Below, one piece after another: positions 377 through 6,584 of a stretch of 14,230 nucleotides of DNA (within the stretch, counting starts at the first letter, position 1; every line of letters starts with the position of its first letter). The notes under the pieces were generated by a model that did not search any database, was not told the origin of the DNA, and saw nothing but the letters and a program-made list of their open reading frames with translations. Source of the stretch: a virus; the IMG/VR virus record IMGVR_UViG_3300012971_000145, one strand, 5' to 3'. Made by a program: the position numbers and the translations under genes.

Positions 377-761
377 TCGCTTCGTCACCTGGGTGGACGA
401 GAAGCCCACCGACGAACAGTTGTTGTTCGTCCTTGAGGATTTTCTAGGGGGAGTCGGGGAGATAACCAATGACCCGACGAACGAGGGCCGTCCCTGGTGG
501 ACCATAAAGTTGCCGGGGAAGCCCTCCCACCCCCTGCGTCGGGCCTTCCAGATCGAAGGGCCGATGGTTCACGAAGAGCGCTGGTTCGAGGTCTACGTTG
601 CCGACGACCATATTGATGTGATGACGCGATTGGGTGACGCCTTTACCAACGCCCTGGCCGACAAGTTTGCCGAAGTGGTGTGCCGAGCCTGGAGAGCGAA
701 AAGTGGACTCCCCTCCGATCCCGACCCCGAACCCGATCCCAACGACTCCTGTTCCGTATAA
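366..761 (+). CDS. hypothetical protein, 131 aa, acidic DPDPEPDP tail
   Basis: ATG 366 is preceded by GGCAGGA 6 nt upstream. It overlaps the previous stop (374-376). Stop is TAA 759-761. Confidence 0.6.
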   Translation: MALDRFVTWVDEKPTDEQLLFVLEDFLGGVGEITNDPTNEGRPWWTIKLPGKPSHPLRRAFQIEGPMVHEERWFEVYVADDHIDVMTRLGDAFTNALADKFAEVVCRAWRAKSGLPSDPDPEPDPNDSCSV

Positions 762-789
762 GGGCCAACTGTTTGAGTCAACAGGGGTA

Positions 790-1191
790 TTGCGCTATAA
801 CATCAAGGACGGTTACGGGTATCGCTTGGTGGTGGAGATCGACAAGGCCATCGTGGATTATTACCGTGCCCTCATCCCGCCCTGGAAGGGCAAGATCAAC
901 CGCCAGATGTACGCCCCGCATATTTCTGTGGTGCGCAACGAAGTGCCGGCCAACCTGGATGCCTGGGCCAAGTATGAGGGCGAGGAAATCAAGTTCCTTT
1001 ACAGCAACCACATTTATCACGGCACGGTCTACTGGTGGCTCAACGCTTTCTGTACCCGCCTGGAGGACATTCGCCTGGAACTTGGGCTGCCGGTATCAAG
1101 TCAATTCACACGGCCCCCTGAAGGTTTCGTGAAGTGTTTTCACATCACTATCGGCAACATGAAGGAGCAGGAGCATGGATGCAAGGAATAA
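790..1191 (+). CDS. 2H phosphoesterase superfamily protein (LigT / 2',5'-RNA ligase / cyclic phosphodiesterase-like)
   Basis: Two H-x-[ST]-x motifs, 'APHISVV' and 'CFHITIG', lie about 76 aa apart. That is the diagnostic spacing of the 2H fold. I place the start at TTG 790 behind AGGGGT. The ORF track's 634 start would add a Pro-rich extension that reads through the previous gene in another frame. Stop is TAA 1189-1191. Confidence 0.7.
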   Translation: MRYNIKDGYGYRLVVEIDKAIVDYYRALIPPWKGKINRQMYAPHISVVRNEVPANLDAWAKYEGEEIKFLYSNHIYHGTVYWWLNAFCTRLEDIRLELGLPVSSQFTRPPEGFVKCFHITIGNMKEQEHGCKE

Positions 1192-2078: not shown

Positions 2079-2582
2079 ATGTTCAAGATACTGCTGATAA
2101 ATCAAATCTGGTATCACGAGGATGACGCTCAAATTGAAGTGAAGGAAGTGACCCTGGGCGAACTTTTGGAGAACCCGGATTACGAAATTCAGGCGGAATT
2201 GGAGCGTGCCGGCTGGAAAAATGTCAAGAAGGTGGTGGACCGGGATACCCGGCTCGCCCTGAACAAGAATTTCTTTCTGATCTCCGGCCAGGGCTACCCT
2301 GCCGTCTTGCCCGTCGATCTGGACCGATTGCAGAGTTACAACTTAACATCGTTGGCGAATGGCAGTAAACTGGTGCAAGAAGTTAGCGTCCAGTCGGCAT
2401 TGACCGACGAGCAGTATAAGCAGTATCAGAAGGCCAGGAAGGTCATCGACAACCAGAAGCGCCAGCAGGCCGAGGCCAAGCGCAAGCGGGCGGAAAAGAA
2501 GAAGAGCCGGGAGCTTGCTAAGGCTGCCAAAGTGCTTCAGGACAACGGAATCAAGGTAGAACTTGACCAACAGGGAGGGTAA
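2079..2582 (+). CDS. hypothetical protein with Lys/Arg-rich coiled C-terminus (KRQQAEAKRKRAEKKKSRELAK)
   Basis: I chose ATG 2079, 8 nt after GCGAGG. The track's ATG 2055 sits inside the TATAAT hexamer. Stop is TAA 2580-2582. Confidence 0.55.
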   Translation: MFKILLINQIWYHEDDAQIEVKEVTLGELLENPDYEIQAELERAGWKNVKKVVDRDTRLALNKNFFLISGQGYPAVLPVDLDRLQSYNLTSLANGSKLVQEVSVQSALTDEQYKQYQKARKVIDNQKRQQAEAKRKRAEKKKSRELAKAAKVLQDNGIKVELDQQGG

Positions 2583-2583
2583 G

Positions 2584-2886
2584 ATGGCTGCGGCCAAACA
2601 GGTTATTGAGTCCGAGGAGAAGCCGGTGGAGCGGAACGCCTTGAAGGAGGCCATCGTCACGGTCCTGAAGGCGGGGCTGGGCCTGGAACTGCGCACGCCC
2701 CTGGCCGTTTACCCCACGGACGGCAGCTACATGGTCAGCTTCTTGTTTTTCGACGGGGAGCCGATCCCGACCGGCCTCAGCCTTGAACAGCGCAACCGGG
2801 TGAAGAAGGAACAGGAGATGGATGAGTATTTCGACTCTCCTGAAGAGGCGGCGGAATTATTTTTGAAGCTCAAGGAGCAACGATGA
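2584..2886 (+). CDS. hypothetical protein, 100 aa
   Basis: ATG 2584 is immediately preceded by GGGAGGG. The track's ATG 2563 lies inside the upstream gene. Confidence 0.6.
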   Translation: MAAAKQVIESEEKPVERNALKEAIVTVLKAGLGLELRTPLAVYPTDGSYMVSFLFFDGEPIPTGLSLEQRNRVKKEQEMDEYFDSPEEAAELFLKLKEQR

Positions 2887-3362
2887 AACCCAAGATATGC
2901 AGCCACCGGGCGGCTGCGGAATTCCTGCACGACAACCCGAAGACACACGACGTTATTTTGATCGTCAACAACGGCACGAGGTATGACAACGAGGACCACC
3001 TGAGCGCCATCCGGCGAAACGCCAACCGGGTCTGTGAGTTGATGTTTGACGACATCGAGTTCCACCGTGACAACCACAGGATGGTGGACGAGTCGCAGGT
3101 TCAGGAGGCGATCCATTTCGCCGCCGGCAAGGACAACCTCGTTGTCACCTGCACGGCGGGCATGGGCCGCAGTGCGGCCTTGGCATACGTCGTGGCTTGC
3201 TCTAAAATGGACCCTGCCGAGGCGGTGACGATTTTGGACCCGGATCGCCACACTCCGAATGAGAAAGTGATTTTCCTGGGCAACCGGCTGGTGGACGCGC
3301 CCACTCTTTTGGAGTGTTACGCCCGATTTAAGGACCAGATGTGCCTGCGATACAAATTCTAG
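2883..3362 (+). CDS. Cys-based phosphatase (PTP / dual-specificity phosphatase superfamily, CX5R P-loop)
   Basis: The start shows ATGA coupling. 'VVTCTAGMGRSAALAY' matches the (V/H)Cx2Gx2R(S/T) catalytic loop of cysteine phosphatases. It sits about two-thirds of the way along a 159-aa protein, as in DSP folds. Confidence 0.65.
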   Translation: MKPKICSHRAAAEFLHDNPKTHDVILIVNNGTRYDNEDHLSAIRRNANRVCELMFDDIEFHRDNHRMVDESQVQEAIHFAAGKDNLVVTCTAGMGRSAALAYVVACSKMDPAEAVTILDPDRHTPNEKVIFLGNRLVDAPTLLECYARFKDQMCLRYKF

Positions 3363-3372
3363 GAGATTTAGC

Positions 3373-3600
3373 GTGGCGGACTTCTGCAAAGCCTGCTCAA
3401 CCGAACTCTTCGGAGAGGATCGGGGCGACTTGAAGGGAGTAACCTCTGAAGAGGACTGGCAGCAAGGCCGTGCCGGCATCACCATCTGCGAGGGTTGCGG
3501 CGTTATTTATGTTGACCCCAGCGGCAACTGCGTTTCTTCGGATTGTCTGAAGAAGGGCAAGCCTGGACACGGAGATACCCAATGGCCGACAACCCCGTAA
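3373..3600 (+). CDS. small zinc-ribbon protein (CKAC ... CEGC ... C-x5-C)
   Basis: GTG 3373 lies 7 nt after AGGAG. It has two CxxC pairs. It is 75 aa. Confidence 0.55.
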   Translation: MADFCKACSTELFGEDRGDLKGVTSEEDWQQGRAGITICEGCGVIYVDPSGNCVSSDCLKKGKPGHGDTQWPTTP

Positions 3601-3881
3601 GACGGCTGCCCGACCCAGGCGACGGCCTGGGGCGGGTGGAAACCGGCCCGGTGCAAATTGGCGACGACTGGCCGGGCCTCTTCATTCGGGGCGACTGCGC
3701 CTTTGGCCTCGCCATGAGCATCAAGGCCGTGCTGACCCACTTCGAGGACAACCCGAAACAGGAAATCGGCTTCGCCCTCCACGACCTCCAATCGCTGTAC
3801 AAGGACATTCTCACTCAGGTCATCATCGGCGGCAACGAGATGTATAATAGAATGGAGGACAAATTGCCGCCGGAGGGCTAG
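3582..3881 (+). CDS. hypothetical protein, about 99 aa
   Basis: ATG 3582 is preceded by GGAGA. The track start at 3543 has no RBS. The start here is uncertain. Confidence 0.5.
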   Translation: MADNPVRRLPDPGDGLGRVETGPVQIGDDWPGLFIRGDCAFGLAMSIKAVLTHFEDNPKQEIGFALHDLQSLYKDILTQVIIGGNEMYNRMEDKLPPEG

Positions 3882-4267
3882 TGGAAGCGTTCGTATTTAT
3901 CGGTTTATTATTCGCCCATTGGGTGGGAGATTTCGTTTGCCAAACTCGTTACATGGCTGATAACAAGAGCAAGGACTGGTTGGCCCTGACCAGCCACGTC
4001 TTGACCTACATGACGGTGCTGGGGGTCTTTATCGGTGTCCTGCTTGTCGGCCTGGCCTTAAACGGCCCCGGATACGCCGGCTTGTTTTTCCTGTGGTTGG
4101 GGGTTAATTTCGCGTTGCATTTTGGCACCGATGCCATAACCAGCCGCATCACCAGTTATTATTGGAGCCAGCGACAAACAAGTGCGTTTTTCAGAACCAT
4201 CGGTTTCGACCAGTTTCTTCACGCGACCGCCCTGCTGTTGACAACCAAGTACATCCTGGGAATTTGA
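3881..4267 (+). CDS. integral membrane protein, possibly DUF3307-like (HWVGDFVCQ motif)
   Basis: GTG 3881 overlaps the upstream TAG by 1 nt. It has three or four hydrophobic helices. The family assignment comes from my memory of the motif only. Confidence 0.5.
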   Translation: MEAFVFIGLLFAHWVGDFVCQTRYMADNKSKDWLALTSHVLTYMTVLGVFIGVLLVGLALNGPGYAGLFFLWLGVNFALHFGTDAITSRITSYYWSQRQTSAFFRTIGFDQFLHATALLLTTKYILGI

Positions 4268-4959: not shown

Positions 4960-5414
4960 GCGACGACATCAAGGTGTACCAGCGGGGGGAAAGCCCCCAG
5001 GAGAAACCCTATTTCGAGGCGTTGCTCGCCGCCCTCCCGGAAGGGTGGGCGGTGACGGAGGGGCCGTATTGTCCGGGCAAGGAGGGTCATCTCACCTACA
5101 AGGCGGTCAGCGCCCAGGGCGGGCAGTATCGGATCGCGCATGTTCGGGACGGCGACTTTGCCGTTACCCTGGAGCCGGCCAAAATCGACCATAATTGGTT
5201 GGCGCAGCAACTCGGAGCCGAGATCGTTGGCAAGGTAGAAGGGCCAATTCACGGCATGGCCGGAGTCGCTAATCTGACCCGGCAATATCAACAACGCATG
5301 AAGGAGAAACGAGATGCTGCCGACCCAGAAGTGGATACTGGCCAAGGTGATCTCCGGGGGCCAGACGGGGGCGGACCAGGCGGGCCTACGGGCCGCACGG
5401 GCGATGGGCATTGA
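4956..5414 (+). CDS. hypothetical protein, 152 aa; the 3' 101 nt overlap the next gene
   Basis: ATGA coupling at 4956. The Gly-rich tail 'GPDGGGPGGPTGRTGDGH' lies wholly inside the next gene's start region. Confidence 0.45.
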   Translation: MSDDIKVYQRGESPQEKPYFEALLAALPEGWAVTEGPYCPGKEGHLTYKAVSAQGGQYRIAHVRDGDFAVTLEPAKIDHNWLAQQLGAEIVGKVEGPIHGMAGVANLTRQYQQRMKEKRDAADPEVDTGQGDLRGPDGGGPGGPTGRTGDGH

Positions 5415-5829
5415 AACCGGCGGCTGGGTGCCTTTCGGCTGTGTCACCGAGGACGGCCCCAATCCAGCGCTCCTCAAGGAGTACGATCTCAAGGAGATGG
5501 ATAGCGACAAATACCCGCCCCGCACGGAGGCCAACGTGCGGGATTCGGACGGCACTATGCGTTTCGCCGCTAACTTCGCCACCGCCGGTGAACGCTGCAC
5601 CCTGAAGGCGATCAAGTGGTTCAATAAACCATATTTCGACGTGGACTGGAACAACCCGCCGTCCATCCAACAGGCGGTGGAGTGGATCGTCGCCAACAAA
5701 GTGAAAACGCTCAACGTCGCCGGCAACCGGGAAAGTACCAACCCAGGCATCGGCAGCTTCGTGGAACAATATTTGGTCCAGGTGTTCGCCCAGGTCATAC
5801 TTAAACCCGTGCGGAGTGCGACGAAATGA
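5314..5829 (+). CDS. SLOG-superfamily protein of the 'molybdenum-cofactor-carrier'/YpsA-like family
   Basis: AAGGAG lies 9 nt before ATG 5314. The N-terminal 'ISGGQTGADQAGL' P-loop-like motif is followed by 'GGWVPFG..EDG.NP...Y.L.E......Y..RT..NV.DSDGT'. This is the characteristic MoCo-carrier/YpsA pattern. Confidence 0.75.
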   Translation: MLPTQKWILAKVISGGQTGADQAGLRAARAMGIETGGWVPFGCVTEDGPNPALLKEYDLKEMDSDKYPPRTEANVRDSDGTMRFAANFATAGERCTLKAIKWFNKPYFDVDWNNPPSIQQAVEWIVANKVKTLNVAGNRESTNPGIGSFVEQYLVQVFAQVILKPVRSATK

Positions 5830-6584
5830 TCGACTTTGAACGAGGCGCGAAAACCACCGGCTCGAAGTTCTACTTCCTCACCGGCGACGAGGCCGTGATG
5901 GAGTGGAACCTCATCAACTACATGATCCGCTTCCACCGCCACAAGGGCTACCAGTTCGTGCTGCCGCCCTTTTTGGTAAATAAGAAAGTGGGCGAGATGG
6001 CCGGCATTCTCCCTCGTTTCGAGGGCGACTACTACCAGACCAAGGATGGCCTCATGCTGATCCCGACCGCCGAGACGCCCCTGGTCGGGATGCACGCCAA
6101 TGAAATCTTCAAGGAGGAAGAGCTTCCCCGCCGCTACGTCGCCTACTCCCCCTGCTTCCGCAAGGAGGCTGGGGCCTACGGTGCCAAGGACAAGGGCTAC
6201 CGCCGGGTCCATCAGTTCAATAAGGTCGAATTGTTTACCATCTGCACGCCGGACTCGTCGGAGTTTTACCACAACCAGATGGTGGACGACGTGTGCGAAC
6301 TGCTCAAGAATCTCAACGTCGAACATCGCAAGGTAGTGCTGGACGAAAAGGACCGTTCGCCCGTTTCCAATCAGACCATCGACATCGAAGTGCTGGTCGG
6401 CAAGGAGTGGTTGGAGGTATCTTCTATTTCCAACACCGGCGACAACCAGAGCCGGGTCGCCCAGGTCCGTTATAAGCCAAAGGACGGCAAGAAGAATGTC
6501 AAGTGTCACTTGCTCAACGGTTCGGGCGTTGCCCTCCCCCGGCTGATGCTCGCCCTGGCTGAGCGCATCAACGAGTGGAAATAA
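5826..6584 (+). CDS. seryl-tRNA-synthetase-like protein, catalytic core only (class II aaRS motifs 1-3), lacking the N-terminal coiled-coil arm
   Basis: ATGA coupling to the SLOG gene. It aligns to bacterial SerRS from the start of the catalytic domain onward. Matches are 'LIPTAETPL', 'YSPCFRKEAGAYGAKDKGYRRVHQFNKVEL', 'DIEVLVGKEWLEVSSISN' and the motif-3 'LNGSGVALPRLMLALAE'. The protein is only 252 aa. Confidence 0.85.
   Translation: MIDFERGAKTTGSKFYFLTGDEAVMEWNLINYMIRFHRHKGYQFVLPPFLVNKKVGEMAGILPRFEGDYYQTKDGLMLIPTAETPLVGMHANEIFKEEELPRRYVAYSPCFRKEAGAYGAKDKGYRRVHQFNKVELFTICTPDSSEFYHNQMVDDVCELLKNLNVEHRKVVLDEKDRSPVSNQTIDIEVLVGKEWLEVSSISNTGDNQSRVAQVRYKPKDGKKNVKCHLLNGSGVALPRLMLALAERINEWK

Follow-up and report, generated by a model that had tools for sequence, protein, structure and literature searches.

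The window analyzed in this work is a 14,230-nucleotide stretch of viral DNA (IMG/VR record IMGVR_UViG_3300012971_000145), in which an intact open reading frame (ORF) on the plus strand, at positions 2883..3362, is predicted to encode a stand-alone cysteine phosphatase of 159 amino acids with the fold of the dual-specificity phosphatases (DSP). An AAGGAG ribosome-binding site (2872..2877, plus strand) lies 5 nt upstream of its ATG, which overlaps the TGA stop of the preceding gene as ATGA. The initial annotation of this DNA had singled out the peptide VTCTAGMGRS as a P-loop of the protein tyrosine phosphatase (PTP)/DSP type, and this peptide indeed forms residues 88-97 of the product (V88-T-C90-T-A-G-M-G-R96-S97; 3144..3173, plus strand), where C90-X5-R96-S97 stands within a conserved reading frame. 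Orthologues at 63-99% identity exist, and the dN/dS ratio of the window gene was 0.117 (dS 0.85) against an orthologue of 82% identity and about 0.25 against another of 65% identity. Since orthologues exist and dN/dS is low, the sequence comparison indicates that this is a real, conserved gene under purifying selection.

In the AlphaFold2 (AF2) model of the phosphatase (pLDDT 93.7), the N-terminal half is a regular beta-alpha-beta-alpha arrangement with four predicted strands, the P-loop C90-TAGMG-R96-S97 directly follows strand E86-90, and D57 lies in the loop after strand E50-54 (strand 3). Residue conservation was counted in an alignment of 72 family sequences, in which D57, C90, G93 and R96 are invariant (72/72) and F55, S97, A99, A101, A114, H123, P125, N126 and G133 are nearly so. 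The tripeptide F55-D56-D57 (3045..3053, plus strand), assigned to the start of the strand 3-helix 3 loop from conservation and the hhalign register, is kept at 70/72, 54/72 and 72/72, respectively, and S97 at 71/72; the segment H123-T-P125-N126 (3249..3260, plus strand), which is how the family presents the 'PN' motif that DSPs have past the P-loop helices, has H123 in 70 and both P125 and N126 in 71 of the 72 relatives. The alignment with VHR by hhalign reached a probability of 94.9%. Its register, with Q60 matched to VHR F96, puts D56/D57 opposite VHR D92/T93 and H123-x-P-N opposite the VHR 'GPND', and D57 precedes C90 by 33 residues as the VHR general acid D92 precedes C124 by 32. By sequence, D57 is therefore the predicted general acid, C90 the predicted nucleophile and R96 the residue predicted to bind the phosphate, while S97 is predicted to help in hydrolyzing the thiophosphate intermediate. 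According to the initial annotation, a predicted structure lacking the general-acid loop and the DSP fold would speak against a phosphatase, and both are present, as judged from the AF2 model, the invariant D57 and the hhalign alignment. The protein combines a C-X5-R-(S/T) loop after a beta-strand, an Asp 30-35 residues N-terminal to it and the DSP alpha/beta fold, the features by which the PTP/DSP superfamily is recognized. It is very probably an active DSP-fold cysteine phosphatase, and sequence and model together predict, with high confidence, a catalytically complete, stand-alone phosphomonoesterase of the PTP/DSP fold. On the helix after the P-loop, 16 residues past C90, there is a further cysteine, C106 (nt 3198-3200), which is kept in 59/72 relatives and is invariant in the closer set; by analogy with other PTPs it may serve, as a 'backdoor' cysteine, in reversible inactivation by oxidation.

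The search of the PDB with the single sequence gave marginal matches only (E 0.067), while the family profile matched PTPMT1 best (E 3.9e-9, over the P-loop region only), with DUSP13, DUSP3/VHR and DUSP10 among its other matches; TM-scores to the closest solved structures were 0.45-0.56, at 10-19% identity. The match to PTPMT1 could be taken for the mark of a phosphatase of glucans (laforin/SEX4 type) or of lipids (PTEN/PTPMT1 type), working on polysaccharide or phospholipid of the host envelope, a reading that the polysaccharide pyruvyl transferase gene of the window (11419-12510) would also suit. The loop CTAGMGR moreover fits C-zeta-A-G-psi-G-R, which we take to be the signature of glucan phosphatases; however, G95 is replaced by Ser in 59/72 relatives, including P0003 and P0004 at 65-67% identity, and since this glycine is not conserved the glucan-phosphatase reading of the loop was rejected. 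Glucan phosphatases are recognized by the conserved loop together with a carbohydrate-binding module or surface sites; the phosphatase has no such module and no other extra domain, and its P-loop has no Lys or Arg, the basic residues typical of lipid phosphatases. Action on glucans or lipids is thus a very improbable explanation.

The family to which the phosphatase belongs is large. An exhaustive search with a profile hidden Markov model (HMM) of a library clustered at 50% identity retrieved 647 clusters at E <= 1e-3 and 291 at E <= 1e-10, whereas a word-index homologue search had given only 6 and later 24 relatives. Nearly all members are stand-alone proteins of 150-180 aa, and no domain fusions were found among the longer ones. 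They are spread through huge and jumbo phages, occurring on many IMG/VR contigs of 200-620 kb and in two copies in the 595-kb phage LR756511, and they are also present in some bacteria (Paludisphaera soli, a Planctomycetota metagenome-assembled genome (MAG) and an Alcaligenaceae MAG). The Pfam model DSPc (PF00782) scores the window protein at 22.6 bits (E 1e-4), below its gathering threshold of 33.5 bits; 68/72 relatives match it at E <= 0.01, and those scored individually reach about 20-30 bits, also sub-threshold, with P0144 (33.9 bits) as the exception. Because the window protein and all the individually scored relatives except P0144 remain below the threshold, the family is, as far as sequence models can tell, a divergent one that lies outside the curated DSPc model. 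NCBIfam gave no match for the window protein and none that was meaningful among the 72 relatives, the PHROG family that contains the window phosphatase is unannotated, and among the Pfam matches (window protein at E <= 0.1, the 72 relatives at E <= 0.01) the phosphatase model of the 'Swiss Army Knife' (SAK) RNA-repair proteins did not appear. The variable positions of the P-loop, T and M in the window protein, are mostly H/T/A and I/V/M across the family. JGI labels P0002, P0005, P0008, P0010, P0012, P0014 and other homologues 'predicted protein tyrosine phosphatase', which is the name of both COG5350 and COG4551 (PMC2887360), and a literature search found no biochemical study of the family.

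These data also bear on the possibility that the motif arose by chance in a non-coding or non-enzymatic ORF, or marks an inactive pseudophosphatase. Six-frame translation of the window yields 86 copies of the bare CX5R motif and that of shuffled sequences 83 +/- 8, so that the bare motif is not above chance, and the DSPc score is sub-threshold, but the fuller signature CxAGxxR[ST] was found once where 0.08 were expected. Selection (dN/dS 0.12), the 647 related clusters, the invariant nucleophile, Arg and Asp and the confident DSP-fold model effectively refute this explanation, to which we give next to no probability.

The window belongs to a huge phage. An orthologue of the phosphatase with 82% identity lies on a 669,797-bp JGI contig in the same gene order as in the window, namely genes for proteins of 167 and 100 aa, the phosphatase, proteins of 77 and 101 aa, DUF3307, cpYpsA, a seryl-tRNA synthetase (SerRS) core, a vault-like protein, an Anticodon_2/DUF2934 protein and a pyruvyl transferase. 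The block of phosphatase, orf112, DUF3307, cpYpsA and SerRS core is also retained on the viral IMG/VR contig L093 (532,729 bp). The 'phage-like module' in which the initial annotation had placed the gene was borne out by these two contigs, by the PHROG families that the neighbors of the phosphatase match, by three tRNA genes in the window and by the vault-like homologues present in huge phages. In the window, the small upstream gene (2563..2886, plus strand) is apparently translationally coupled to the phosphatase, to judge from the overlapping codons; its true start is probably the ATG at 2584, for a product of 100 aa, and a 100-aa gene holds its position on the 670-kb JGI contig. Pfam and PHROG searches with this gene returned no match, and it is kept beside the phosphatase in L001, L002, L003 and L007. 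Downstream, a gene for a 75-aa Cys-rich protein of PHROG 2210 (3373..3600, plus strand; phrog_2210 E 5.9e-27) starts 11 nt past the phosphatase stop and is kept in L001-L003 and L007. The plus strand also bears a gene for a DUF3307 membrane protein (3881-4267; phrog_2470), which L002, L093 and the 670-kb contig retain in the same block.

Further downstream, all on the plus strand, a cpYpsA SLOG-domain gene (5314-5829; E 6.4e-42) shares its last 4 nt with the beginning of a gene for a 252-aa SerRS catalytic core (5826-6584; TIGR00414 positions 151-400) that is devoid of the N-terminal tRNA-binding arm. L007, the 532-kb L093 and the 670-kb contig all retain this pair, and the coupling of a truncated SerRS to a SLOG protein suggests, at the level of sequence, something besides canonical tRNA charging. 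A 926-aa vault-like protein is encoded at 7381-10161 (MVP_shoulder E 1.4e-25; Vault_3 repeat E 9e-11), with homologues of 40% identity over about 90% of its length in the uncultured huge phages LR756500 (462 kb) and LR756501 and LR756503 (735 kb). Its orthologue on the 670-kb contig has 893 aa, and the true start of the window gene may be an internal Met that would give a product of about 893 aa; the domain matches indicate a vault-like or SPFH-shoulder protein that is conserved in the largest phages. A 237-aa protein (10619-11332) joins Anticodon_2 (E 1.5e-10), the anticodon-binding domain of class I aminoacyl-tRNA synthetases, to a C-terminal DUF2934 (E 2e-13), has no catalytic domain and is kept on the 670-kb contig, as is the CsaB/WcaK-like pyruvyl transferase homologue already mentioned (plus strand; E 2.7e-17), which, from its sequence, could modify host surface glycans. 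The three tRNA genes are tRNA-Ala(UGC) at 12992-13063, tRNA-Val(UAC) at 13243-13313 and tRNA-Ile(UAU) at 14003-14074. The UAU anticodon, with its direct reading of AUA, is uncommon in bacteria, and a tRNA with this anticodon also lies beside a phosphatase homologue in LR756511 (L008, 5713-5787).

The initial annotation had also invoked a 2H phosphoesterase, and such a gene could be located upstream, in ORF 634..1191 (plus strand; start uncertain), whose product bears the HxS motif 'PHISV' and the HxT motif 'FHITI' of a 2H-SAK-type enzyme. Its match to Pfam 2H-SAK is weak and sub-threshold (E 0.0019), that to phrog_12204 has E 6.5e-19, and a homologue in locus L042 (642-1064; E 1.4e-28) passes the 2H-SAK threshold of 27 bits with 29.9 bits. 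The further suggestion that both enzymes form a pair for RNA end healing held in part. About 1.7 kb of DNA with a conserved opposite-strand gene (1450-2028) intervenes between the two genes, so that they form no operon in the window; nor is the 2H gene an obligatory neighbor of the family. Unexpectedly, the end-healing idea itself gained real support from the context of the relatives, which includes RtcB, RlaP, Thg1, AAA_33 kinases, 2H-SAK and tRNA arrays. A 2H-SAK gene was found within about 2-5 kb of the phosphatase in two lineages, the window clade and L042 (5 kb upstream), and another is located in the tRNA region that holds the phosphatase in LR756511.

The association with tRNA genes was counted in 68 non-redundant loci with a clear family member. 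A tRNA gene occurs within 1 kb of the phosphatase in 16 and within 350 nt in 12 of these loci, and all 16 nearby tRNAs are on the phosphatase strand. The baseline was a single genome, the whole 595-kb and very tRNA-rich phage LR756511 with its 63 tRNAs, of which 9.4% lies within 1 kb and 5.0% within 350 nt of a tRNA; against this one-genome baseline, the 68 loci gave binomial p values of about 4e-4 (1 kb) and 1e-4 (350 nt). The phosphatase is found inside an array of seven tRNAs in L053, begins 39 nt past an array of 13 tRNAs in L095 and is 19-43 nt away from a tRNA in L057, L106 and L108; L022, L032 and L008 likewise lie in or abut same-strand tRNA arrays of jumbo or huge phages. Four genes of the window, namely orf107, the phosphatase, DUF3307 and 2H-SAK, have homologues interspersed in the tRNA region of LR756511 at 233-291 kb; that of the gene upstream of the phosphatase is at 233141-233494, between two tRNA genes, and that of DUF3307 at 249123-249539, also between tRNA genes. 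In an earlier survey of viral tRNA clusters, the core genes of one group included a 'tyrosine phosphatase' (PMC6409571), which may or may not belong to the present family.

Genes for RNA repair adjoin the phosphatase in several independent relatives. On the contig of P0014 (JGI 3300047160, 5,991 bp), one strand carries in succession an AAA_33 kinase, the phosphatase, a 208-aa ORF, a second AAA_33 kinase, Thg1/Thg1C and two RlaP genes, a cluster that, from the sequences, looks like a complete tRNA end-repair kit of 5'-kinase, phosphatase, 3'-5' polymerase and 3'-nucleotidyltransferases. In L060, where cpYpsA lies upstream, an RlaP gene starts in overlap with the stop codon of the phosphatase. 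RlaP extends damaged RNA with NMPs at its 3'-OH (PMC12776372), and it fits as a neighbor of a 3'-end phosphatase because the 3'-OH is exactly the product of such an enzyme. In L022, the phosphatase is followed after 16 nt by tRNA-Gln and then RtcB, and in L021 an RtcB gene adjoins it. Recurrent genes within 8 kb of the phosphatase on jumbo-phage contigs encode PIN-PhoH, cpYpsA, a CCA-adding enzyme and an ArfB-like RF-1 domain, as well as dUTPase, HNH endonucleases, DnaJ and thymidylate synthase. A conserved operon partner was rejected, since each Pfam family in a survey of 141 flanking ORFs (two genes per side in 47 non-redundant metagenomic loci) occurred in at most 2 loci, and each neighbor family from de novo clustering in at most about 6 of 92 locus groups.

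Some of these neighbors would be compatible with a small-molecule phosphatase, which would remove phosphate from a nucleotide or sugar phosphate in NAD/ADP-ribose or nucleotide-sugar metabolism and, together with NADAR, SLOG or PfkB-cytidylyltransferase enzymes, detoxify or recycle immune-related metabolites. The candidates are ADP-ribose-1''-phosphate (the 2H product from Appr>p), NADP-type 2'-phosphates and heptose or ribose bisphosphate. In LR756511, the gene directly after the phosphatase encodes NADAR (E 7.5e-53), and L136 has a weaker NADAR-like ORF (phmmer only, E 5.7e-8) about 1.3 kb from a weak DSP match; a cpYpsA SLOG gene accompanies the phosphatase within 2-3.5 kb in L060, in L108 and in the window clade, L093 included. 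A gene joining PfkB kinase and cytidylyltransferase (HldE-like) is directly downstream in L042, a 272-kb contig (6676-8049, plus strand), with a related fragment in L136 and another copy elsewhere in LR756511 (358056-359480, minus strand), and a sugar-phosphate substrate is conceivable because the ADP-heptose pathway needs a phosphatase for an intermediate. The Pfam model PTP-NADK ('DSP-PTPase fused to NAD+ kinase') weakly matches 14/72 members. Viral SLOG, NADAR and 2H domains have been predicted to process ADP-ribose derivatives, and the Cys-phosphatase family DUF4326 has been proposed to remove ribose-linked phosphates in an ADP-ribose context (PMC9503650). Nevertheless, each of these associations was seen in one to four loci only, and the proximity of NADAR and SLOG is likely due to chance because both are common in large phages, being found in about 48% and about 31% of them, respectively (PMC9503650). 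The PTP-NADK matches are weak (best E 1.1e-6) and no fusion to such domains was found among the longer family members, so that a small-molecule substrate appears quite unlikely.

The context alone discriminates between substrates, and because it points to the maintenance of tRNA or RNA we favor this role. If D57 acts as the general acid, the leaving group would be an alcohol and the substrate, accordingly, a phosphomonoester of a sugar or of Ser/Thr/Tyr, not a 5'-triphosphate. As the possibility that we prefer, while keeping it short of probable, we tentatively propose that the enzyme acts on a damaged RNA end that carries a ribose-linked phosphomonoester, most likely the 2'- or 3'-phosphate of a cleaved tRNA. 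The setting in the window is consistent with it, given the 2H-SAK enzyme, the SerRS catalytic core, the Anticodon_2-domain protein and the three tRNAs. By analogy with PTP chemistry, the thiolate of C90 would attack the substrate phosphate held by R96 and the backbone amides of the P-loop, D57 on the preceding loop would protonate the leaving alcohol to yield a cysteinyl-phosphate intermediate, and water would then hydrolyze this intermediate with assistance of D57 and S97. In the proposed pathway, the 2H cyclic phosphodiesterase would first open the 2',3'-cyclic phosphate on the cleaved tRNA, and the phosphatase would remove the remaining 2'- or 3'-phosphate to regenerate a 3'-OH that could be used by RlaP, the CCA-adding enzyme or an ATP-dependent ligase. 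The phosphatase might in this manner belong, with the phage tRNAs, the SerRS core and the 2H enzyme, to a phage toolkit for tRNA maintenance and counter-defense.

Several observations weigh against this proposal. Within the loci, tRNA occupancy at 0-1 kb from the phosphatase (14%) did not significantly exceed that at 3-8 kb (7.8%; Fisher p = 0.10), and the nearest tRNA of the window is 9.6 kb away. Co-location with tRNA arrays may reflect genome organization instead of function, because accessory genes in general land in phage tRNA arrays, where HNH endonuclease and dUTPase genes recur. The 2H gene of the window is in a different transcription unit, no obligatory partner emerged from the de novo clustering, and RtcB as a neighbor needs no 3'-phosphatase. 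The phosphatase is mildly acidic (pI 6.2, which is also the family median), atypical of RNA-binding enzymes, and its closest solved structures are protein DUSPs and PTPMT1. Finally, the characterized phage RNA 3'-phosphatases are of the HAD superfamily and not PTPs (PMC7824862). The broader form of the hypothesis is that this family would be the first PTP-fold, cysteinyl-phosphate phosphatase dedicated to RNA 3'-end healing, placed in tRNA arrays of huge and jumbo phages beside 2H, RlaP, Thg1, RtcB and CCA-adding enzymes, where it would counter the tRNA-cleaving immunity of the host and replace the HAD phosphatase of T4-like Pnkp. As a whole, this is a speculation that we regard as rather unlikely.

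Part of the same evidence would be expected of a protein phosphatase with dual or phosphotyrosine specificity acting on host or phage proteins during infection, which might reverse host Ser/Thr/Tyr-kinase signaling, kinase-based abortive infection or the envelope polysaccharide synthesis controlled by BY-kinases. By sequence and structure, the closest matches are protein DUSPs, namely MKP5/DUSP10, DUSP3, DUSP5, DUSP14, DUSP28, Tk-PTP and SsoPTP (the last two archaeal), protein DSPs typically have the complete D...C-X5-R-S catalytic set, and the name given by JGI to the homologues says the same. The acidic pI is no sign of nucleic-acid binding, the Planctomycetota members have no RNA-repair neighbors, and DSP-fold proteins are present in some jumbo phages, one of them annotated as a virion protein, which would suit an early take-over of the host. 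On the other hand, the TM-scores to the protein DUSPs are modest, and the argument from the nearest structure is weak because the PDB is heavily biased toward them; moreover, many atypical small DSPs use non-protein substrates. No kinase, kinase-like defense gene or BY-kinase was seen adjoining the family members, and the associations that were seen link the family to tRNA genes and to enzymes of RNA or nucleotides. A protein substrate is thus an alternative to be taken seriously, albeit an unlikely one, and the healing of RNA ends remains the role that we prefer.

The assignment to the superfamily is in itself ordinary, namely that a huge phage encodes a divergent cysteine phosphatase with the DSP fold. 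The added interest lies in a sizeable family, missed by the curated thresholds of Pfam and NCBIfam, that is common in the largest phages and is found repeatedly in tRNA arrays beside RNA-repair enzymes. Should the role in RNA end healing be true, it would mean new chemistry in tRNA repair, a new phage component in the conflict over tRNA-cleaving bacterial defenses and a function for many genes labeled 'predicted tyrosine phosphatase'; were the enzyme a protein phosphatase instead, it would indicate a take-over of phosphosignaling by huge phages.

Comparison with known systems places the phosphatase near several of them. In common with the atypical DUSPs (VHR/DUSP3, DUSP14, DUSP28, the MKP5 catalytic domain and PTPMT1) it has a single domain of about 150-185 aa, a P-loop of the HCxAGxSRS type that follows a beta-strand, the 'PN' motif and an Asp that precedes the Cys by about 32-33 residues. 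It differs from them in the low identity to solved structures (10-19%), the regular N-terminal half, the sub-threshold DSPc match, the family-specific F-D-D, conserved C106 and H-x-P-N, and in that the genes are of phages and bacteria with tRNA and RNA-repair neighbors instead of MAPK-type partners. The homologues named by JGI are likewise small stand-alone proteins of bacteria or phages with the CX5R loop, and the name is their only link to the COG5350 and COG4551 families. The DSP-type RNA 5'-tri/diphosphatases, such as baculovirus BVP/PTP, PIR1/DUSP11 and the metazoan capping enzyme, have no general-acid Asp and attack a phosphoanhydride. In the phosphatase, by contrast, D57 is invariant, the composition of the P-loop is different and the structural similarity to these enzymes is below that to protein DUSPs; neither the missing Asp nor a closest structure in this group, by which such enzymes are recognized, was found, and the phosphatase lies outside the BVP/PIR1 RNA-triphosphatase subgroup.

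The SAK RNA-repair proteins contain 2H-SAK (PF22547) and DSP-PTPase domains, and this fused architecture is a precedent for a cyclic phosphodiesterase followed by a Cys-phosphatase. As in SAK, a 2H-SAK-type enzyme and a DSP-fold phosphatase co-occur in the window, in L042 and in LR756511; unlike in SAK, the window 2H enzyme and phosphatase are encoded by separate genes in different transcription units, and the phosphatase gave no match to the SAK phosphatase model in the Pfam search (E <= 0.1). The proposed job is the one done by the 3'-phosphatase modules of T4 and bacterial Pnkp, which strip the 2'/3'-phosphate from broken tRNA to leave an end fit for sealing or rebuilding and serve phages against anticodon nucleases, and a jumbo-phage review lists only HAD enzymes in the RNA 3'-phosphatase role (PMC7824862). 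The P0014 cluster resembles Pnkp in pairing the phosphatase with P-loop kinases, whereas the Pnkp phosphatases are HAD or calcineurin-like enzymes that work through an Asp-phosphate or depend on metal, and the present family has an unrelated fold with a predicted Cys-phosphate chemistry.

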